In this document: in pieces, positions 14,785-55,982 of the stretch
Position numbering within the stretch: position 1 is the stretch's first letter
How the letters are laid out: each line of letters begins with the position of its first letter
Origin: Patescibacteria group bacterium
GTDB lineage: Bacteria; Patescibacteriota; Microgenomatia; UBA8517
Assembly: GCA_038061225.1 (NCBI GenBank)
Contig: JBBTZT010000003.1
Coordinates: forward strand, 113,092 to 177,091
Direction: 5' to 3'
DNA: 64,000 bases
The notes under the pieces: model-generated
The model's input: the letters and a program-made list of their open reading frames with translations, nothing else
The model's database searches: none
Told to the model about the DNA's origin: nothing
Position numbers and translations under genes: made by a program

Positions 14785-15773
14785 TGGCAAACTATAAAGA
14801 ATCTAAATTAATATTAGAAGAAATAAAAAAGGCAAAAAATATTGTTGTAAATTGTCATCGCGGTCCTGATGGTGATTCAATTGGTAGCGCTTTGTCAATG
14901 CAATCTGTAATTAGTAATATGGGTATAAAAGTTGATGTCATTTGTCCAAATCAATTGCCAGTCGACCTTTTATTTTTAAATAATAGTAATAATGTCAAAA
15001 TTGTTGATTTTAATAAGTTTGATTTTTCAAAATATGATTTATTTATTACTTTAGACTCTTCTACTTATGGTATGGTTACGGGAGATGAAAAAATAGAAAA
15101 ACCAGATATTAAAATAATTGTCATTGACCATCATTTTACTAACGAGGGTTTTGGTGATATCAATTTAATTGATAGTAAAGTTACATCTACAGCAGAATTA
15201 TTGTTTAAGGTTTTTGTAGATTGGAATACATCACTTGATAGTGATATTGCAACTAAATTATTAACTGGGATATTAAGCGATACAGGTTGTTTTCAATATG
15301 GTGGGGTAGGAAGACCTACATTTGAAATTGCAGCTAAATTATTAAGTTTAGGAGCAAACAAAGATGAAATAATTTTTAATATTTTTAGAAGTGTTAAGTT
15401 TGGAACACTAAAGTTTTGGGGGAAAGTAATTGAAAATATGCAATATGATATCAACTATTCTTTTATTTGGTCTGCAATTCCTTTATCTGTTTATAAAGAA
15501 TATGGTGAAGATTCATCTTCAAAAGAAGATGTTGCCAATTTATTTTCTCCTGTAGTAAGGGATACAGATTTTGGTTTGATTATGGTGGAAATTGATAAAG
15601 ACGTTTTAGCAATTAGTTTTAGAGCAAGGAGTAATTTTGATGTATCAAAAATAGCAGAAGCTTTGGGTGGAGGTGGGCATATTGCAGCATCTGGAGCAAA
15701 AGTTAAAGGGTTGTTTGAAGATTCTGTTAAGAAAGTTTTAGAAGTGTGTCGGAAATATGCTAGAAAAAATTAA
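14784..15773 (+). CDS. nrnA: DHH-family phosphoesterase NrnA (bifunctional oligoribonuclease/pAp phosphatase)
   Basis: HRGPDGDSIGSA and VIDHHFTNEGFGD DHH motifs; GGGH near the C-terminus (DHHA1). Confidence 0.75.
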   Translation: MANYKESKLILEEIKKAKNIVVNCHRGPDGDSIGSALSMQSVISNMGIKVDVICPNQLPVDLLFLNNSNNVKIVDFNKFDFSKYDLFITLDSSTYGMVTGDEKIEKPDIKIIVIDHHFTNEGFGDINLIDSKVTSTAELLFKVFVDWNTSLDSDIATKLLTGILSDTGCFQYGGVGRPTFEIAAKLLSLGANKDEIIFNIFRSVKFGTLKFWGKVIENMQYDINYSFIWSAIPLSVYKEYGEDSSSKEDVANLFSPVVRDTDFGLIMVEIDKDVLAISFRARSNFDVSKIAEALGGGGHIAASGAKVKGLFEDSVKKVLEVCRKYARKN

Positions 15774-17256
15774 AAAATTATATACCCTGCCTGCGCAGGC
15801 AGGTCCTTGGAATTTGATGATTTTGATTGTTTTACTTCTGGCTTTTGTTTTAAGAACTTATAGAATTGGGGAACTTCTTGATTTCCATTATGATCAAGGT
15901 AGAGATGCTTTAGTTATCTGGGATTTAATTAATAAAGGTAAATTATTTTTAATTGGTCCAACTACAGGTTTAGCTGGTGTATTTAGAGGACCATTCTATT
16001 ATTATTTAATTGCACCATTTTATTTTTTAGGACAAGGAAACCCAATTTATCCAAGCCTATTTTTAGCCTTAACTACTGTTCTTGCAATCTGGTTAATGTA
16101 CTATCTAGTATCAAAATTTCAAGATAAACAAAGCGGTTTAATTGCAATTTTACTGGCTTCTTTTTCATACTATATGATCTGGGCAAGTAGATGGTTAAGT
16201 AACCCTACACCAATGCTTTTATTATCCATGTTTTTGGTTTTGGGAATGTATATTGTTCTAAAAAGTAAACAATATGGATGGTATGTAATAGCTCTTGTTT
16301 CTGGTTTTTCACTTTTTAGTTTTGGTTCATCAGGTGAACTTTTCTACATTCCTGCAATTTTAATATTTTTGATATTGAATTGGAAAAACAGACCAAATGC
16401 AAAAACTTTAATTGTATCAACGGTTTTATTTATATTTACTTTCTCCCCACTTATAATTTTTGATATTAAACATAATGGAATTTTAAGGAATGGAATGAGT
16501 AAAAATTTTATTGAGGAAAAAAGTTTCACATTTCCTCCCAAAAATATTATAGAAAGTCGAACAAAATTGTACTACGAATCATTTTCAACAAAGCTATTCC
16601 ATTATAGAGGTAGATCAGAATTAATTTTACTCTCTATTTTATTAGTATTATTTATATACCTATTGCCATCACTTTATAAAAATAAATTTTCAAAAATTGT
16701 ATTACTATTACTCATTTCTCCATTGATTGGTCTTTATTTTTATCAAGGAAATAATAATAATTTCTATGAATATTATCTGACAGGTTATTATATGATTTAT
16801 ATAATGCTTTCAAGTTTAGTTCTAGGAAAACTATGGCAAAAAAAATATCTAGGGAAATTATTTGTAATTATTTTTTTATTAATTTTCATACGCAATAATT
16901 ATGAACCACTTAAGTTTAAATTGACATCTAATTCAGACAATCCAAACAGTATTACATTTATCAACCAACTACAAGCTGTTGATTATTTAGCTCATGATTC
17001 AGTTGGCAATAAGTTTAATATTGATGCCTATGTTCCCCCTGTCATTTCATATTCTTATGACTATTTATTTAAATGGAAAGGAGTAATACAAGAAGAAAAT
17101 CAGGTAAGATTACTTTATACCTTATACGAAGAAGATCCACCACATCCAGAAAGACTTAAAGCTTGGCTTGATAGACAAAAAGGAATTGGAAAAGTGATAG
17201 AAGAAAAAAAATTTGGTGCAATAACCGTACAAAAAAGGGAAAGGTTTGTTAAATGA
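15757..17256 (+). CDS. GT-C fold membrane glycosyltransferase, family A paralog 2 (start may instead be ATG 15817)
   Basis: HYDQGRDALV motif. Paralog of 13294. The N-terminal 20 codons contain the 18-bp palindrome. Confidence 0.55.
   Translation: MLEKIKKLYTLPAQAGPWNLMILIVLLLAFVLRTYRIGELLDFHYDQGRDALVIWDLINKGKLFLIGPTTGLAGVFRGPFYYYLIAPFYFLGQGNPIYPSLFLALTTVLAIWLMYYLVSKFQDKQSGLIAILLASFSYYMIWASRWLSNPTPMLLLSMFLVLGMYIVLKSKQYGWYVIALVSGFSLFSFGSSGELFYIPAILIFLILNWKNRPNAKTLIVSTVLFIFTFSPLIIFDIKHNGILRNGMSKNFIEEKSFTFPPKNIIESRTKLYYESFSTKLFHYRGRSELILLSILLVLFIYLLPSLYKNKFSKIVLLLLISPLIGLYFYQGNNNNFYEYYLTGYYMIYIMLSSLVLGKLWQKKYLGKLFVIIFLLIFIRNNYEPLKFKLTSNSDNPNSITFINQLQAVDYLAHDSVGNKFNIDAYVPPVISYSYDYLFKWKGVIQEENQVRLLYTLYEEDPPHPERLKAWLDRQKGIGKVIEEKKFGAITVQKRERFVK
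15786..15803. repeat. 18-bp perfect G+C-rich palindrome CCTGCCTGCGCAGGCAGG (copy 1)
   Basis: The sequence equals its own reverse complement. An identical copy lies at 43642..43659. Confidence 0.9.
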
Positions 17257-41696: not shown

Positions 41697-43314
41697 ATTT
41701 ATATTAACATTAATTATTGCTTTAAGTTTCTTTTTACGAATATACAAAATTACTTCTATTCCACCATCCTTGAATTGGGATGAGACTTCAATTGGATACA
41801 ACGCATATAGCATTATGTTGACTGGCAAAGATGAATGGGGGGAGTTTGTGCCACTTCATTTTAAATCATTTGGAGAATATAAACTTCCAGCTCAAATATA
41901 TGCTTCAATTCCGGGAATATATTTTTTTGGTCTTAATGAATTAGGAGTTAGAATCACTCCTGTTGTTTATGGTACTTTAACCGTCTTACTTTTGTACTTA
42001 TTGTTGCAGCGACTTTACAACCTACGTCCTATATCCCTGATCGGCACGTTTCTTCTCGCAATATCCCCGTGGCACATACAATTAACAAGAGCTTCTTTTG
42101 AATCATCCTTTTCTCTGTTTTGGTTTTTGATGGCGATTTGGTTTTTGATTAAAGGATTTAAAAAACCAAAATGGCTTGTTATTTCAACAATTCCGTTTGT
42201 AATATCCGTTTATACATATAATACCGCTAGGGTTTTCACACCATTGTTCTTATTTGTGTTTTATCTTATTAACTACAAATTTATGTTAAAGAATTTTAAA
42301 TATGCTCTTTTTGGTTTTTTGACATTTGTAGCTTTAGCAATCCCAATTATTCCATTTGTTATATCGGGTGATGCTGCAGCAAGATATAAATTAGTAAGTA
42401 TTACAGATGACAAGGGACTAGTACCTAGAATTGAGGAGAGAAGAAATTTATCAAAACTACCACCATCTCTAACTAAATTAATACATAATAGATATACATA
42501 TAATACATATTATTTCTCCAAAAATTATTTAGCTCATTTTACTCCTAGTTTTTTATTTTTAGATGGAGCTGGACATAAACAACATCATGTTCAAGGCGTT
42601 GGGGAATTGTACTGGATCCAAGCACCGTTTTTGATTTATGGGTTGTATTTATTAATAAAAAGAAAAGATAGATCATTAAAAATTTTATTACCGTGGTTAC
42701 TTTTAGCTTTTGTACCTGTATCAATGACCAATGATAGTATTCCAAATGCGCTTCGCACTCTAATTGCTGTACCTGTTTACCAAATTTTTTCAGCAGTAGG
42801 AATATTTGAATTTTTTAAATTTAAAAGATACAAAAAAATAATTTTAAGTTTGTCTGTAATTTTGTTTATAGTTAATTTTTATATGTTTGCTATTAATCTC
42901 TATATCCTATACCCTATACGCTATTCAAAGGATTGGCAGTATGGCAATTCCCAAGTTGTAGAATATATAAAAAATAACCAAGATAAATATGATTTAGTTG
43001 TTTATACAAGAAGTTATGGTGAGCCACATATTTTTACTCTTTTTAATTTGAAATATGATCCCGCAAAATATCAAAATAGTCCAAATCTTAATCGTTTTGA
43101 AACTTTTGATTGGGTAAGAGTATTAAAATTTGATAAATACTATTTTCCAGATTTGGGAGATAAAGGAACAAAGTATGAAGATATAGTTCGCGCAAATCCA
43201 GACACAAAAATATTATTTGTAGGTAAGTCTGGTGATTTTCCAGAAAGTGCAATAATATTAGAAAGGATAAACTTTTTAAATGGTGAAGAAGCTTTTGAGA
43301 TTACTACAAACTAA
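41668..43314 (+). CDS. Family C paralog 2
   Basis: SLNWDETSIGYNAYSIM...DEWGEFVPLHFKSFGE. Confidence 0.55.
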   Translation: MRFSKAMKNRFILTLIIALSFFLRIYKITSIPPSLNWDETSIGYNAYSIMLTGKDEWGEFVPLHFKSFGEYKLPAQIYASIPGIYFFGLNELGVRITPVVYGTLTVLLLYLLLQRLYNLRPISLIGTFLLAISPWHIQLTRASFESSFSLFWFLMAIWFLIKGFKKPKWLVISTIPFVISVYTYNTARVFTPLFLFVFYLINYKFMLKNFKYALFGFLTFVALAIPIIPFVISGDAAARYKLVSITDDKGLVPRIEERRNLSKLPPSLTKLIHNRYTYNTYYFSKNYLAHFTPSFLFLDGAGHKQHHVQGVGELYWIQAPFLIYGLYLLIKRKDRSLKILLPWLLLAFVPVSMTNDSIPNALRTLIAVPVYQIFSAVGIFEFFKFKRYKKIILSLSVILFIVNFYMFAINLYILYPIRYSKDWQYGNSQVVEYIKNNQDKYDLVVYTRSYGEPHIFTLFNLKYDPAKYQNSPNLNRFETFDWVRVLKFDKYYFPDLGDKGTKYEDIVRANPDTKILFVGKSGDFPESAIILERINFLNGEEAFEITTN

Positions 43315-44701
43315 TTTTGTTTTGATTTTAATTTGTTTATTGTTTTTGGGAACTAGACTTTTTAAAATAGACACAATTCCTTCTTCTGTTTACTGGGATG
43401 AGGCATCAATTGGTTATAATGCATATAGTATTTTACAAACTGGTAGAGATGAATGGGGGGAGTTTATGCCACTTCATTTTAGAGCTTTTGGTGAATTTAA
43501 ACTACCTGTTTATATTTATTCTGTTATGTTTACAGAGTCTATTTTTGGTTTAACTCCATTTGCTGTACGTTTGCCATCGGTTATTTATGGTTTGTTATCA
43601 GTCATTGGTTTGTACCTAGTAGTTTTAGAATTAACAAAAAACCTGCCTGCGCAGGCAGGCAAATTATTATCTCTCTTTTCTTCTTATCTTTTTTCTATTT
43701 CACCTTGGTTTTTTATCTTTTCAAGGACAGGATATGAAGCAACTGCAGGATTAGCGTTTTTTATCTGGGCAATTTATTTAATAATTAGAAATAAATTAAT
43801 TTTAGCGACTCTTTTATTCATTGGATCTGCTTATAGTTACAATAGCTTTAGAATATTAACACCTTTAGTACTTGGTCCAGCGCTACTGTATTTTTTACTA
43901 GGAACTAGCAAGCTTCGCTTATTAAAGAAAAGATTTACTGTTGTTGTAGTTTCGATATTATTTTTGTTGATAAGCATTTTTCCACTATATAAATTATACA
44001 AACAGGATTCAGGACTATCGAGGCTGCAAACAGTTGGATCAAAAAACATTGTCCAAAATTATATAAAAAACTTTTCTCCTGACTTTTTGTTTATTACAGG
44101 AGATACAAACCCCAGAAGTCAAATGCTAAATACAGGACAGTTATATTATTTAGATGCAATATTTTTAGTTTTAGGAATAATATACATTCTAAAGAAAAAA
44201 GATAGAAAACTATATTATATTTTAGCCATTTTATTACTGGCTCCAATTCCTGCCAGTATTACAAAAGAAAATCCACATGCCTTGCGTTCTATTTTAATGA
44301 GTCCAATAATGTCGGTAATATCTGCAATCGGAATTTATTATTTATCTAATTTTTTTAAAAAACAAAAACAATTAATTTTTGTTACTGTTCTTGTTTTGTA
44401 CTCACTTTGTTTTGAAAATTATATGTACAAATTCGCTACTCAATATAACAACTTATCATCATCTTCGTGGCAGATTGAATACAAACAAATATTTCAAAAA
44501 CAAAAAAGTGGATGTGTTTTTGATGAATTTGCTCAGCCTTATATTTTTGCACTTTTCTACGGCGTAGACGATGAAATGAATAAAGTTGATCCAAATTATT
44601 TTATCGCGTCTCGCGTTTTAAATCCTGTTTCAGACTGGGGCTTTTCAACTGTCGCATCGTTCGGTAATTATACTTTTCCAAAATTATGTCAAACAAAATA
44701 A
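43280..44701 (+). CDS. Family C paralog 3 (carries the 18-bp palindrome insertion)
   Basis: SVYWDEASIGYNAYSIL...DEWGEFMPLHFRAFGE. Confidence 0.55.
   Translation: MVKKLLRLLQTNFVLILICLLFLGTRLFKIDTIPSSVYWDEASIGYNAYSILQTGRDEWGEFMPLHFRAFGEFKLPVYIYSVMFTESIFGLTPFAVRLPSVIYGLLSVIGLYLVVLELTKNLPAQAGKLLSLFSSYLFSISPWFFIFSRTGYEATAGLAFFIWAIYLIIRNKLILATLLFIGSAYSYNSFRILTPLVLGPALLYFLLGTSKLRLLKKRFTVVVVSILFLLISIFPLYKLYKQDSGLSRLQTVGSKNIVQNYIKNFSPDFLFITGDTNPRSQMLNTGQLYYLDAIFLVLGIIYILKKKDRKLYYILAILLLAPIPASITKENPHALRSILMSPIMSVISAIGIYYLSNFFKKQKQLIFVTVLVLYSLCFENYMYKFATQYNNLSSSSWQIEYKQIFQKQKSGCVFDEFAQPYIFALFYGVDDEMNKVDPNYFIASRVLNPVSDWGFSTVASFGNYTFPKLCQTK
43642..43659. repeat. 18-bp perfect palindrome CCTGCCTGCGCAGGCAGG (copy 2), in-frame insertion in a GT-C gene
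   Basis: Identical to copy 1; encodes LPAQAG in the same codon phase. Confidence 0.9.
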
Positions 44702-46287
44702 CTTACATACTGCTAGGGTTAATTATTACTTTTGCTGGGTTCTTGCGATTTTACAAACTTGATCAAATACCAATATCTTTAAATTGGGATGAAGTAGCAG
44801 CTGGCTATAATGCATACACTATTGCAAACTGGGGGGCTGATGAGTATGGAAATAAATTTCCAATTATATTTAAGTCGTTTGCCGATGACAAGCATCCAGT
44901 ACATATTTATTTAACAGCAGTAGTAGTTAAATTGTTTGGTCTGACTGATTTTAATATTCGCGCAACAAGCGCTGGAATTGGTGTTTTATCTGTATTTGCA
45001 ATATTCTTTTTGGCTAGAGAGTTGTTTAAAAGTGATTTGGCCGGGTTATTATCCTCGTTATTTCTTGCTGTCTCTCCATATCACATTCATTTTTCAAGAG
45101 GTCTTTGGGAAAATAATTTTGCACTATTCTTTTTAATAGGAGGATTGTCTTTATTTTACGTAGGTATACGAAAAAAGAACTATTTGTTTCCTATTTCGTT
45201 CGTATTTTTTGGTTTAAGTTTTTTTTCATACCACTCAGCCAAAATTGTGGTTCCGATAGTTGTGTTAATTGCCTCTTTACTTAATATCAAAAAAATATTT
45301 ACCAACAAAAAGATGCTTATTCTATCTATTGTGGTTACTCTGTTTTTTGCAGGTTTGATAATAGCTGAACCAAAGATTTTAGGGTTTGCTAGGATTAATC
45401 AAACAAAATTTTCAGAGGAAATGATTGCAAAAAGTGGAGATGAAATAAACATTATTTTAAATAATTACAAAAAATACTTTAGTTATTCATATTTATTTCA
45501 AACTGGAGATTTAGGGCCAAGGGCTTCAGTAAAAGTAATTGGAGAGTTTTATAAAATTGATTTAATTTTGTTTTTTGCAGGTTTAATTGCCTTGTTTGTT
45601 AAGCGAAAGTGGCAAGCAATGATACTTATATTAATTTGGTTACTAATATCTCCAATTCCTGGGGCAGTATCATCATTTGATCCAAGTGCAATTAGAGGAA
45701 TATTTATGATAGGGCCAGTAATGTTATTGTCTGCTGTTGGTGCATCTTCAATTGTGATGTTGTTTAAGAATAAACAAAGCTTGGCCAAATATAAATTTGG
45801 TAAGCTACTGCAAACAATATCGTTAATATTAATTTTAATATTAGTAGGTAAAGAGGCAACAAACTATTTAAATTATTATTCAAAAATTTATCCAATCAAA
45901 GAAGCTATTGAATGGCAGTATGGAATGAAGCAGATAGTTGAATATACAAAAGAAGATAAAAATTTTTATAAAATGTATGTAGACAATATTAGACAACAAC
46001 CATATATTTATTTTCTATACTACCAAAAAGTTTCACTCCCAGAACTTTTAAAAACTGTAAAATATGATGAAAGTAATTCAAAAAGTTTTAATACAGTTCT
46101 GTCGTTTGGAAAATATCAGTTTGGAGGATGGAACATTATTAATAGTTATCCAAATGCTGAAATACTGTATGCAATTACACCAAGCTATTACACAGGACTT
46201 AGATATATCCAGCAATTTGACCTAGATAAGCTTATTAAGTATCCTGATAAGACAGACGCATTTTATATAGTAGAAGGGCATCAATGA
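44686..46287 (+). CDS. Family C paralog 4
   Basis: SLNWDEVAAGYNAYTIA...DEYGNKFPIIFKSF. Confidence 0.55.
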   Translation: MSNKITYILLGLIITFAGFLRFYKLDQIPISLNWDEVAAGYNAYTIANWGADEYGNKFPIIFKSFADDKHPVHIYLTAVVVKLFGLTDFNIRATSAGIGVLSVFAIFFLARELFKSDLAGLLSSLFLAVSPYHIHFSRGLWENNFALFFLIGGLSLFYVGIRKKNYLFPISFVFFGLSFFSYHSAKIVVPIVVLIASLLNIKKIFTNKKMLILSIVVTLFFAGLIIAEPKILGFARINQTKFSEEMIAKSGDEINIILNNYKKYFSYSYLFQTGDLGPRASVKVIGEFYKIDLILFFAGLIALFVKRKWQAMILILIWLLISPIPGAVSSFDPSAIRGIFMIGPVMLLSAVGASSIVMLFKNKQSLAKYKFGKLLQTISLILILILVGKEATNYLNYYSKIYPIKEAIEWQYGMKQIVEYTKEDKNFYKMYVDNIRQQPYIYFLYYQKVSLPELLKTVKYDESNSKSFNTVLSFGKYQFGGWNIINSYPNAEILYAITPSYYTGLRYIQQFDLDKLIKYPDKTDAFYIVEGHQ

Positions 46288-47141
46288 TTAAAACTATGAA
46301 CAAAATAAAATTAAGTGTAGTGTTAGCTACAAGAAACGAAGAAGAAAATATTGCAAAGTGTTTGGAATCAGTCCGCCAGCTGGCGGATGAAATTATTATT
46401 TTTGATGAGTATTCTACAGATAAAACAAGAGAAATTGCAGAAAAGTTTGGCGCAAAAGTATTTCTTGAACCTCATCATGATATTTTTCATATAACTAAAC
46501 AAAAAGCACTAGAAAAAGCAAAAGGTGAATGGGTATTACAGCTTGATGCAGATGAAGTGGTATCTCATGAACTTAGAAAGCAAATTATTGCAGTAAGTAA
46601 TCATCAATCACCAATTGTTAATAATAATCCACTTTTTCTTAGACACCAGAAGTTAATTGAAAAAAGAGACGGTAAAATAGGCAAAGATAATGGAGAAGTT
46701 GTTGGCTATTTTATTCCCAGAAGGAATATGTTTTTGGGTAAACCCTTAATTCATGCAGGTGTATACCCTGATGGGGTAATTAGACTAGTTAAAAAAGGTT
46801 TTGCCAAGTTTCCATCTAAATCAGTCCATGAACAAATTGAACTTGATGGAAAAGTGGGTTGGTTAAACGGAGATTTGTTACATTTCGATTCCCCAACTTT
46901 AAAAAGATATTTCATGAGGTTAAATAGATATACAGATATTCAGGCTGAAGAGTTGAGTTCTAAAGAACTACCAAAAAGTATTTGGTCTTTTTATCTGTTC
47001 ACTGTCCACAAACCACTAATCACTTTTTGTTCACTGTTCCTGCGCCATAAAGGTTTTCTTGATGGAGTAAATGGTTTTCTTTGGAGTTTGTTTTCTTCTT
47101 GGCATTTCCCAATTGCATATTTTAAATACATTACTTCTTGA
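46284..47141 (+). CDS. GT2 family glycosyltransferase
   Basis: LSVVLATRNEEENI...IIFDEYSTDKT...LDADE...GFLDGVNG. Confidence 0.65.
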   Translation: MIKTMNKIKLSVVLATRNEEENIAKCLESVRQLADEIIIFDEYSTDKTREIAEKFGAKVFLEPHHDIFHITKQKALEKAKGEWVLQLDADEVVSHELRKQIIAVSNHQSPIVNNNPLFLRHQKLIEKRDGKIGKDNGEVVGYFIPRRNMFLGKPLIHAGVYPDGVIRLVKKGFAKFPSKSVHEQIELDGKVGWLNGDLLHFDSPTLKRYFMRLNRYTDIQAEELSSKELPKSIWSFYLFTVHKPLITFCSLFLRHKGFLDGVNGFLWSLFSSWHFPIAYFKYITS

Positions 47142-47179
47142 CATCTGTCATAGTTCTGTCATAATTGTGACATATGACA
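47138..47179 (+). promoter_or_regulatory. Promoter/operator of the TA module: TTGACA-17-ATAATT overlapping four TGTCA/TGACA half-sites
   Basis: TGTCATA at 47146 and 47157, TGACAT/ATGACA at 47168-47179. The -10 lies 7 nt upstream of the ATG. Confidence 0.45.
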
Positions 47180-47458
47180 CAGCAATTAATAACAATGGAA
47201 TCATTTGCTTCTGTTCAGGAAGCTCAAGCTGGAATAACAAAATTATTTACTAGAGCCAAGGACAAAGGCAAATTTGTACGAGTAATGAGAAATCAGGAAC
47301 CACTTGGGGTATTAATCCCAAACGTACTTTGGGAGTCACTTCTCGAAGATATTGAAGCTCTATCAAGTCCAAATTATATAAAAGCGATTGCTAATTCTAG
47401 AAAATCAAAAAGATTATATTCTTCAGATGAAGTTAAAGAAATACTGGGCTATAATTAA
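47174..47458 (+). CDS. Type II antitoxin, Phd/YefM family
   Basis: FVRVMRNQEPLGVLIPNVLWESLLEDIEAL matches the YefM fold pattern; placed directly upstream of the toxin. Confidence 0.75.
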   Translation: MTQQLITMESFASVQEAQAGITKLFTRAKDKGKFVRVMRNQEPLGVLIPNVLWESLLEDIEALSSPNYIKAIANSRKSKRLYSSDEVKEILGYN

Positions 47459-47461
47459 TTA

Positions 47462-47713
47462 GTGTATTCTTACGAATTTAAGACTAAAGCATTAAAGCAA
47501 CTTAAAAAACTGGATAAAACTGTCCAGAAAAAGATTGTTTGTAAATTGGATCAAATATCTAAAGAAGAGATTTTATTTAGTAACAGAAGGCTAACAAAAT
47601 TTAAAATTGGTTCATACAGGTTAAGAATTGGTGATTATCGCGTAATTTATGATATTGACGGTAAAATGATAACTGTTTTATTGTTGGGACACAGAAAAGA
47701 TATTTATAAATAA
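47462..47713 (+). CDS. Type II toxin, RelE/ParE family (GTG start)
   Basis: YRLRIGDYRVIYDIDGKMITVLLLGHRKDIY signature. Confidence 0.8.
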   Translation: MYSYEFKTKALKQLKKLDKTVQKKIVCKLDQISKEEILFSNRRLTKFKIGSYRLRIGDYRVIYDIDGKMITVLLLGHRKDIYK

Positions 47714-55619: not shown

Positions 55620-55982
55620 ATGGAAAATAAAAACAGTTTTGAAAAACTTGATGCATGGAAGGAAGCACATAAACTTGTAATTGCAATTTACAAAGTAACT
55701 AAAAAGTTTCCAAATGAGGAAAAGTTTAGACTTATAGATCAGATTTGTAGATCAGTCTCGTCAGTAGCGGCTAATATAGTTGAGGGTAATTCAAGGCAGT
55801 ATAGAAAAGAATTTCTGCAATTTTTATATCTATCTAAGGGATCATTGGAAGAAACGAAATACCACTTATTGCTTGCTAGGGACTTGACGTATATCACTTC
55901 CAAAGAATATGGTAACTTTATAGATCAATGTAATTTAGTTGGTAGACTTATTGCTGGTTTGGTTAAATATCTTAGATCTTAG
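55620..55982 (+). CDS. Four-helix-bundle protein (TIGR02436; formerly '23S rRNA intervening-sequence protein')
   Basis: FEKLDAWKEAHKLVIAIYKVTKKFPNEEKFRLIDQICRSVSSVAANIVEGNSRQ...SKGSLEETKYHLLLARDL. Confidence 0.8.
   Translation: MENKNSFEKLDAWKEAHKLVIAIYKVTKKFPNEEKFRLIDQICRSVSSVAANIVEGNSRQYRKEFLQFLYLSKGSLEETKYHLLLARDLTYITSKEYGNFIDQCNLVGRLIAGLVKYLRS

Follow-up and report, generated by a model that had tools for sequence, protein, structure and literature searches.

Several families of short palindromic DNA that behave as selfish or mobile sequences have been described. Repetitive extragenic palindromic (REP) sequences are short stem-loop repeats thought to be miniature non-autonomous mobile elements; they are imperfect palindromes of 20–40 bp with a GTAG or CGTC end tag cleaved by the REP-associated tyrosine transposase (RAYT), and some are intragenic, notably in uvrA and uvrB (PMC3733652). 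Rickettsia palindromic elements (RPEs) are presented, in the part of PMC10969869 that cites Ogata 2000 and 2002, as selfish palindromic DNA that sits in frame in unrelated genes and is translated. The GC clusters of yeast mitochondria, short GC-rich palindromes in an AT-rich genome with in-frame polymorphism in var1 and fast change in the loop, are likewise regarded as transposable (PMC8811140). Here, we analyze an 18-bp palindrome, CCTGCCTGCGCAGGCAGG (hereafter PAL), found twice in a 64-kb stretch of DNA (hereafter the window) on a 195.8-kb contig of a Patescibacteria metagenome-assembled genome (MAG) from Hainich groundwater well H41, and propose from its sequence contexts that it is probably a very small non-autonomous selfish element that spreads as an exact 18-bp unit.

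PAL is a perfect palindrome of two abutting 9-bp arms with 78% GC, in a window whose GC content is ~30% along its whole length. As single-stranded DNA it is predicted to form a 7-bp stem with a GCGC loop at about −7 to −8.3 kcal/mol (−8.3 for copy 2). The initial annotation of this DNA had reported a palindrome at 43642–43659, which we recovered exactly, together with a second copy at 15786–15803. A search that tolerated up to three mismatches returned these two alone, whereas 100 dinucleotide-preserving shuffles gave an expectation of 0.00, and a looser arm-only pattern run over the window found nothing beyond them. Palindromy stops at the ends of the unit and does not include the flanks (TATAC/TCCTT and AAAAA/CAAAT; a slash marks the insertion point here and below). 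Both copies lie within long open reading frames (ORFs) in the same phase, xxC CTG CCT GCG CAG GCA GGx, which encodes LPAQAG. The window is a single long cluster for cell-envelope glycosylation (GT-C paralogs together with GT2, GT4 and rhamnose genes), and the copies, their hosts and the tandem paralogs around copy 2 are as follows.

PAL copy 1: 15786–15803, no strand assigned, host residues 11–16 (LPAQAG)
Host of copy 1: 15757–17256, plus strand, 499 aa, a further GT-C/PMT_2 paralog
C1: 40218–41696, plus strand, GT-C/PMT_2-type paralog without the insert
C2: 41668–43314, plus strand, GT-C/PMT_2-type paralog without the insert
C3, host of copy 2: 43280–44701, plus strand, 473 aa, GT-C (PMT_2/GT39-like) membrane glycosyltransferase
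PAL copy 2: 43642–43659, no strand assigned, C3 residues L122–G127 (LPAQAG)
C4: 44686–46287, plus strand, GT-C/PMT_2-type paralog without the insert

The host of copy 1 scores 36.3 bits against PMT_2, above the Pfam gathering cutoff of 26.1. C3 is borderline, falling just under it at 25.3 bits, and its orthologs carry PF13231/PF02366 and are named GT39.

C3 had been proposed to contain six to seven extra residues, NLPAQAG, that its three paralogs lack, as if 18–21 bp had been inserted without loss of frame. Aligning C1–C4 indeed opened a gap of 6–7 columns in the other three proteins precisely at LPAQAG. As these tandem paralogs are only 29% identical, orthologs provide a stronger test: 59 of the 60 best C3 orthologs (64–93% identity) lack the insert and read LT(N/K)K/KLLSL, and PAQAG is absent from every one of the 120 C3 homologs listed. 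The closest alleles come from other wells of the same aquifer, H52 (L123, protein 89% identical) and H32 (L126, 93%), and both have the empty-site DNA ...ACAAACAA/AAAATTATTA where the window reads ...ACAAAAAA, then CCTGCCTGCGCAGGCAGG, then CAAATTATTA. In a 21.4-kb syntenic alignment of the H41 and H52 strains (97.9% identity), one of six indels is exactly CCTGCCTGCGCAGGCAGG. Two separate assemblies of H41 samples contain the insert, which hence is not an assembly artifact, and the H52 and H32 assemblies, at 40–60x coverage, lack it.

Copy 2 is thus a pure +18-bp, six-residue (L122–G127) indel without a target-site duplication, at the lower end of the length first proposed. A 1-bp ambiguity at the junction is unavoidable because the base after the insert is C. 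The asparagine included in the original proposal is native, its AAC codon taking the first C of PAL, and the inserted peptide is LPAQAG. In an AlphaFold2 model of C3 (41-sequence alignment; pLDDT 87.4, pTM 0.90), residues 122–127 lie at the turn between helix 93–118 and helix 124–139.

Copy 1 follows the same pattern in another gene. Orthologs of its host with 69–86% identity read KLYT/PWNLL without an insert, and the empty-site DNA of two of them (L129 and L130) is TTATACAC/ACCTTGG, compared with TTATATAC, 18 bp and TCCTTGG in the window. Copy 1 is therefore also an exact +18-bp change without target duplication, located in the N-terminal tail ahead of the first hydrophobic helix. With different positions in different GT-C paralogs, the two copies are independent events, and copy 1 is a genuine second instance of the unit, as had been argued.

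Both sites also vary in other ways. An ortholog of the copy 1 host (P0130, L128:9175–9200) has an unrelated in-frame 21-bp insert (LSRRLVN) at the copy 1 site, and a C3 ortholog (P0005, L127:720–760) has an unrelated in-frame 24-bp insert (KQSLPFRG region) at the copy 2 site; we considered each as a PAL copy and rejected it, finding no recognizable PAL. The 5' half of C3 is itself divergent (window ~43140–44020; L121:9862–10738 versus L123), with 85–93% identity in a 21-kb H41/H52 block that is otherwise 98–100% identical, and this patch contains two more in-frame 24-bp indels (L121 positions 10038 and 10614), a pattern that suggests recombination or diversifying change in C3.

To place the two copies in context we turned to other genomes, counting exact 18-mer matches only, so that the sequence conservation seen is partly a matter of ascertainment. 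We found exact PAL in at least 120 stretches of genomes, at least 120 contigs from metagenomes and 25 from viruses. Judged by record title, 71 of the 120 genome stretches listed belong to Candidate Phyla Radiation (CPR)/Patescibacteria lineages of many classes (WWE3, Microgenomates, Woese-, Gottesman-, Beckwith- and Shapirobacteria, Paceibacteria/Parcubacteria groups, Saccharibacteria and Dojkabacteria), 15 to Bacteroidota, including the cultured Litoribacter ruber, 10 to low-GC MAGs labeled 'Gammaproteobacteria/Pseudomonadales', and one to the isolate Rosettibacter primus. The remaining stretches listed are from GC-rich taxa, where chance matches are plausible. In DNA of 35–40% GC we estimate a chance match at ~7e-13 per site, so the low-GC matches cannot be chance.

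With the 18-mer masked, an all-against-all BLAST showed no shared flank similarity within ±200 bp for more than 230 of the 278 listed instances, indicating that they occupy separate contexts and are not copies of one larger repeat. The sole sizeable flank family, an intergenic REP-like unit, comes from a single Sphingobacteriales MAG; a common master context for PAL was discarded, most flanks being singletons in the same comparison. The proposal of a mobile palindromic unit is thereby strongly backed by hundreds of exact copies in unrelated contexts, with mobility itself inferred from this distribution and from polymorphism between strains. Viral matches number 25, against 1–2 for composition-matched controls, yet 22 of the 25 are in GC-rich contigs with even frame use, making them weak evidence for carriage by phages, which we set aside. 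A full-text literature search with sequence and keyword combinations found no description of PAL.

Is the in-frame position of the window copies informative? PAL has no stop codon in any of its three frames and spans six codons, so an ORF always stays open after insertion; being in frame is automatic and no evidence of selection. The choice among the frames is another matter. We counted frames over 265 non-redundant listed copies, taking open frames of at least 450 nt. Such frames hold 96 of the 157 low-GC copies (about 60% intragenic), read as LPAQAG in 69 cases, PACAGR in 14 and CLRRQ in 13 (chi-square ~64 by our own arithmetic), whereas use is near even in DNA of at least 55% GC (24/12/17). 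The flanks of low-GC copies favor a purine at −1 (59/68 coding, 43/59 non-coding) and a pyrimidine at +1 (54/68 coding, 42/59 non-coding), while G at −2 is confined to coding copies. A purine/pyrimidine preference alone would equally favor the CLRRQ and LPAQAG phases, and the frame bias therefore most likely reflects selection against inserted Cys/Arg-rich peptides. Of the earlier suggestion that in-frame insertion is tolerated or selected, it is this bias, and not the preserved frame, that points to selection.

Proteins that host PAL include UvrC, TruB, NusB, a Mur ligase, a RuvX-like protein, aminoacyl-tRNA synthetases, GT2 enzymes and pilin-like proteins, and many further copies are intergenic or lie in tRNA fragments. 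The inserts are often near termini or in charged linkers, and clean six-residue gaps in homologs recur for UvrC (L259) and the Mur ligase (L053), both again +18 bp and free of target duplication. The loop position initially envisaged holds for copy 2 with its helix-helix turn; copy 1 is in a tail. Given this diversity of hosts, PAL has no membrane-protein specificity. Both window hosts are probably GT-C proteins because the window is packed with GT-C genes.

Some sites are hit more than once. Three genomes have PAL in UvrC, where it occupies two sites and is read in two frames. Two GT2 genes, L276 (an ortholog of the window GT2) and L035, have PAL directly after the second base of the Asp codon in an ...AD/EII(V/I)xD motif, with GCAGA-PAL-CGAAAT and GCTGA-PAL-TGAGAT compared with an empty GCAGAT/GAAAT, again a clean +18 bp without duplication. 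This position may be a hotspot for insertion or lie in a loop that tolerates it, and recurrent sites in general could reflect permissive sites, target preference, or both.

Near-variants of PAL keep the arms and change the center (for example CCTGCCTGCCGGCAGGCAGG), with CCGG, CGGTA or CAGC replacing the central CG. Within 1.14 Mb of low-GC PAL-anchored loci, the non-anchor copies comprise six perfect, four one-mismatch, three two-mismatch and no three-mismatch sequences, as would be expected if PAL copies are young, quickly lost, or maintained. One apparent case of decay comes from a Bacteroidota MAG, where two copies of an intergenic repeat (L105:4924–4941 versus L112) differ by an 18-bp indel, CCTGCTTGATCAGGCAAG. 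This sequence equals PAL with four GC-to-AT changes, and would represent a PAL copy in decay whose 18 bp are present in one repeat and absent from the other.

About 7% of low-GC copies have short direct repeats to either side, compared with 0.3% for control positions. In a uvrC linker (L081:1090–1170), for example, the order is ATTTTCAATTTTCA, PAL, gATTTTCAATTTTCA; neither window copy has such repeats. These repeats could be variable target duplications or products of hairpin-induced slippage.

Loci with flanking direct or heptamer-like tandem repeats: L081, L177, L231, L274, L160, L007, L054, L001

A distinct setting for PAL is provided by tRNA genes. About a dozen low-GC copies lie within duplicated 5' pieces of a neighboring tRNA gene, always at a fixed position: after nucleotide 10 of tRNA-Gln (L027, L037, L038, L042 and L110), after nucleotide 23 of tRNA-Leu (two copies in L179), after nucleotide 9 of tRNA-Thr (L094), and in Gly- and Ala-like fragments (L176 and L120). 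Seven copies fall within 70 bp of a tRNA, compared with about two expected. In L027 and L179, the intact tRNA comes after a Pfam-confirmed small GIY-YIG ORF that starts 17–20 nt downstream of PAL. L110 is arranged in this way too, with a GIY-YIG-like ORF that is a phmmer match only and has an internal stop. Two PALs bracket GIY-YIG and tRNA-Leu in L179, and L038 has the order GIY-YIG, intact tRNA-Gln, PAL-interrupted copy. L009 has a matching layout with a different GC-rich hairpin in place of PAL. The small ORF of L037 is different from GIY-YIG and gave zero Pfam matches; an HNH identity assigned by eye was not confirmed by Pfam. We also rejected the idea that PAL interrupts otherwise intact tRNA genes, as its deletion in silico restored a tRNA in L038 only.

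Across CPR MAGs, an architecture of a tRNA 5' fragment with PAL or another GC hairpin, a GIY-YIG ORF 9–20 nt downstream and an intact tRNA (Gln, Leu, Thr or Ser) was observed, at these loci.

L027: 1722–2105
L110: 389–760
L037: 3529–4013
L038: 6725–7200
L042: 362–487
L179: 11310–11830
L094: 6019–6140
L009: 6567–6960

The arrangement looks like that of homing-endonuclease cassettes with a palindrome at the junction. A general association of PAL with a neighbor family was rejected, GIY-YIG being present at 10 of 153 loci, and an association with dnaX was traced to dnaX–tRNA-Gln synteny. We tentatively regard the GIY-YIG/tRNA pairing as a lead to an enzyme or to a break-associated origin, and not as a demonstration of either.

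The window contains one further palindrome of this kind.

PAL2: 46371–46388, no strand assigned, GTCCGCCAGCTGGCGGAT, in the GT2 gene at 46284–47141, read as VRQLAD

Its core, TCCGCCAGCTGGCGGA (46372–46387), is a 16-bp perfect palindrome. Apart from PAL, it is the only GC-rich one of 12 bp or more that the window contains. The PAL2 18-mer is identical in the window, the H52 strain (L123:13075), L105:4961–4978 and L112:5469–5486, the last two being the intergenic repeats of the low-GC Bacteroidota MAG, in which PAL2 lies 46–64 bp from PAL. A PAL2 variant (L187:69–88) is 55 bp from PAL. In the window GT2 gene, PAL2 is a same-length replacement that turns SVKxIAD into SVRQLAD with no indel; it was rejected as a further insertion because ~115 of 120 orthologs have the same length. 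Compared with L127, the flanks are ~92% identical and 13 of the 18 patch positions differ, all toward GC-rich codons. Viral matches to PAL2 are all in GC-rich contigs and mostly read xRQLAD, indicating ordinary codon usage there. We also observed that the Asp-codon position of PAL is shared by L276:4060–4160 and L035:3470–3570, and that the window GT2 gene (46340–46420) has PAL2 over the adjacent six codons.

In its behavior PAL matches known selfish palindromes, yet it fails the defining tests of each family, beginning with size: it measures 18 bp, compared with 20–40 bp for REPs, ~100–150 bp for RPEs and longer, variable lengths for GC clusters. Like REPs, it is intragenic in DNA repair genes (uvrA/uvrB for REPs, uvrC in three genomes for PAL), and in one Sphingobacteriales MAG it lies within a longer intergenic REP-like unit. 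Unlike REPs, it has no GTAG/CGTC tag, the flank logos of 127 low-GC copies showing only a purine at −1 and a pyrimidine at +1, and it is perfect, 18 bp long, low in copy number, ~60% intragenic in low-GC DNA and identical across phyla. No IS200/IS605-type tyrosine (HUH)/RAYT transposase was found among the 28 Pfam-scanned window ORFs or the recurrent ORF clusters near PAL. RPEs share with PAL the in-frame coding insertion, and are translated, but comprise several families of ~100–150 bp that encode 30–50 residues and are restricted to Rickettsia, whereas PAL adds 18 bp and six residues in CPR, Bacteroidota and other groups.

The closest functional analogy is, in our view, to the yeast mitochondrial GC clusters, by behavior only: PAL is a 78% GC palindrome with clean in-frame insertions in a 30% GC window. 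The clusters differ in being longer, variable and mitochondrial, with AG/TAG terminal repeats that are read as target duplications, whereas PAL is invariant, bacterial and free of duplication. MITEs, or miniature inverted-repeat transposable elements, are likewise non-autonomous, based on inverted repeats and at times intragenic with in-frame fusions, but have terminal inverted repeats around internal sequence, a typical length of at least 50 bp and target-site duplications, compared with 9+9 bp and no duplication for PAL. No parent element with PAL ends was found in 1.2 Mb of loci. A half-site search of 1.2 Mb of low-GC loci led us to reject a larger element bounded by two PAL halves, and a pair of PALs in L033 was rejected as such an element because the genes it flanks are the housekeeping genes rsmD and coaD.

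We propose that PAL inserted twice, independently and recently, into two GT-C genes of this Patescibacteria genome. Insertion would prefer a purine/pyrimidine step, and PAL may be written in trans by an enzyme that acts on its hairpin or at a DNA break. The only candidate enzyme to which the data point is the small GIY-YIG nuclease beside PAL at duplicated tRNA fragments, an assignment we make tentatively and consider possible but not probable. After insertion, purifying selection would retain copies with a harmless peptide, with LPAQAG favored over the PACAGR and CLRRQ frames and with tails, linkers and turns between helices favored as sites; such retention would account for the frame bias and the repeated matches at permissive sites. 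Copies would then decay toward AT or be deleted, which would explain why mostly perfect or near-perfect ones are seen. A bolder extension, which we hold to be doubtful, is that PAL and PAL2 are cis-elements of an unrecognized cross-phylum DNA-writing system in which stand-alone GIY-YIG nucleases, and not HUH/RAYT enzymes, place or copy palindromes at purine/pyrimidine steps or breaks, including in essential genes and tRNA duplicates, and sometimes overwrite an equal length of DNA.

Several observations weigh against a selfish mobile element. No mobility genes were found in the 64-kb window (28 ORFs scanned with Pfam). Copy number is low, unlike that of classical REPs: the window has two per 64 kb, and ~1.1 Mb of PAL-anchored loci add about six further perfect copies. 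The counts from the species-representative genome collection and from metagenomes are lower bounds obtained without control patterns. It is unusual for an 18-mer to be identical across phyla when elements of this type normally evolve together with a transposase specific to their host. GIY-YIG, the most recurrent neighbor family among 1,807 clustered ORFs, is nonetheless found at only 10 of 153 low-GC loci, and its close associations come from a few tRNA loci that are partly orthologous (dnaX–tRNA-Gln synteny). Finally, the same-length replacement by PAL2 is unexplained by simple insertion.

PAL could instead be a scar of break repair, a fixed sequence added at double-strand breaks that homing endonucleases made or that arose spontaneously. 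If, for instance, the same 9 nt were templated onto both 3' ends, joining would automatically yield a perfect palindrome with a variable center and no target duplication, in keeping with the absence of a target-site duplication at either window copy, the variants with outer arms kept and the center altered, and the fixed position of PAL in duplicated tRNA 5' fragments beside a GIY-YIG or other small ORF. Yet arm mutations occur too, the half-site search behind the center variants is biased to intact arms, a nuclease gene is nearby at a minority of PAL sites only, and a templating RNA or enzyme is neither known nor found; we judge this origin unlikely. It is quite unlikely that PAL is instead kept for a use, for instance by marking DNA for uptake in competent CPR, by binding a conserved protein, or by forming an RNA or DNA hairpin that controls neighboring genes (the GIY-YIG ORFs, for example). 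Conservation of 18/18 bases across very distant lineages, the scarcity of strongly decayed copies (none with three mismatches in 1.1 Mb) and a spacing of 17–20 nt upstream of GIY-YIG starts, reminiscent of translational control hairpins, all speak for a function. However, an exact-match search makes part of this conservation a matter of ascertainment, the sites are scattered over unrelated coding sequences, tails and linkers at a density far under that of known uptake sequences, and close strains differ in presence or absence with no other change.

Palindromic scars made from both inverted ends occur in some eukaryotic elements, and PAL could by this precedent be the footprint left on excision of a larger cut-and-paste transposon with ends CCTGCCTGC... 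and ...GCAGGCAGG, or the solo terminal repeats of such an element. The two-sided direct repeats at ~7% of low-GC copies, against 0.3% of controls, could then be retained target duplications. This we consider very unlikely: no full-length element was seen, almost every solo half-site in the 1.2 Mb of low-GC loci belongs to a variant palindrome and not to a pair of distant ends, and there is no duplication at the window copies or other clean cases. An assembly or library artifact, slippage duplication or convergent point mutations would be another account of a GC-rich island that looks foreign in AT-rich, MAG-derived DNA. The chance of this is practically negligible, as the insert recurs in independent assemblies from different filter fractions and is missing in the sister strains of other wells, PAL is present in cultured isolates, the window offers no local template, and the change is a clean +18-bp indel instead of substitutions.

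If PAL is truly mobile, it would set a new lower size limit for selfish DNA, at 18 bp of pure palindrome without target duplication, and would imply that the coding sequence of the smallest, most streamlined bacterial genomes can be colonized because the frame cannot be broken. Such an element would also be a recurrent source of six-residue protein insertions, and its exact 18-mer could serve as a marker of DNA recently exchanged in groundwater between uncultured CPR, Bacteroidota and the viruses of both. For annotation, LPAQAG, PACAGR or CLRRQ in CPR proteins would be element-derived and not family signatures. The GIY-YIG pairing at duplicated tRNA fragments offers a directly testable enzyme candidate, and a DNA-writing system of the kind outlined above, if true, would comprise the smallest known mobile DNA unit and a new 'palindrome-tron' class.

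The neighborhood of the two copies has further features of its own. Searches for tRNA genes and Rfam families gave zero matches in the window. Nine PMT_2/PMT-positive GT-C paralogs were counted among the ORFs scanned with Pfam, many ORFs in 13294–63302 lying outside that scan. The density of GT-C (PMT_2/PMT) genes over this interval is extraordinary; they are interleaved with GT2 and GT4 genes, and stop and start codons often overlap. Near the start of the window, a GC-rich, non-palindromic island, CCCGCGCTTTGGCCGGTTTG (935–954), lies within a NUDIX-like ORF (828–1496). A PhdYeFM/ParE toxin-antitoxin pair (~47174–47713) directly follows the GT2 gene, according to the annotation of L121. Within the glycosylation cluster, 55620–55982 encodes a 23S rRNA-intervening-sequence/bAvd-like four-helix protein, a homolog of which is similarly placed in L127.

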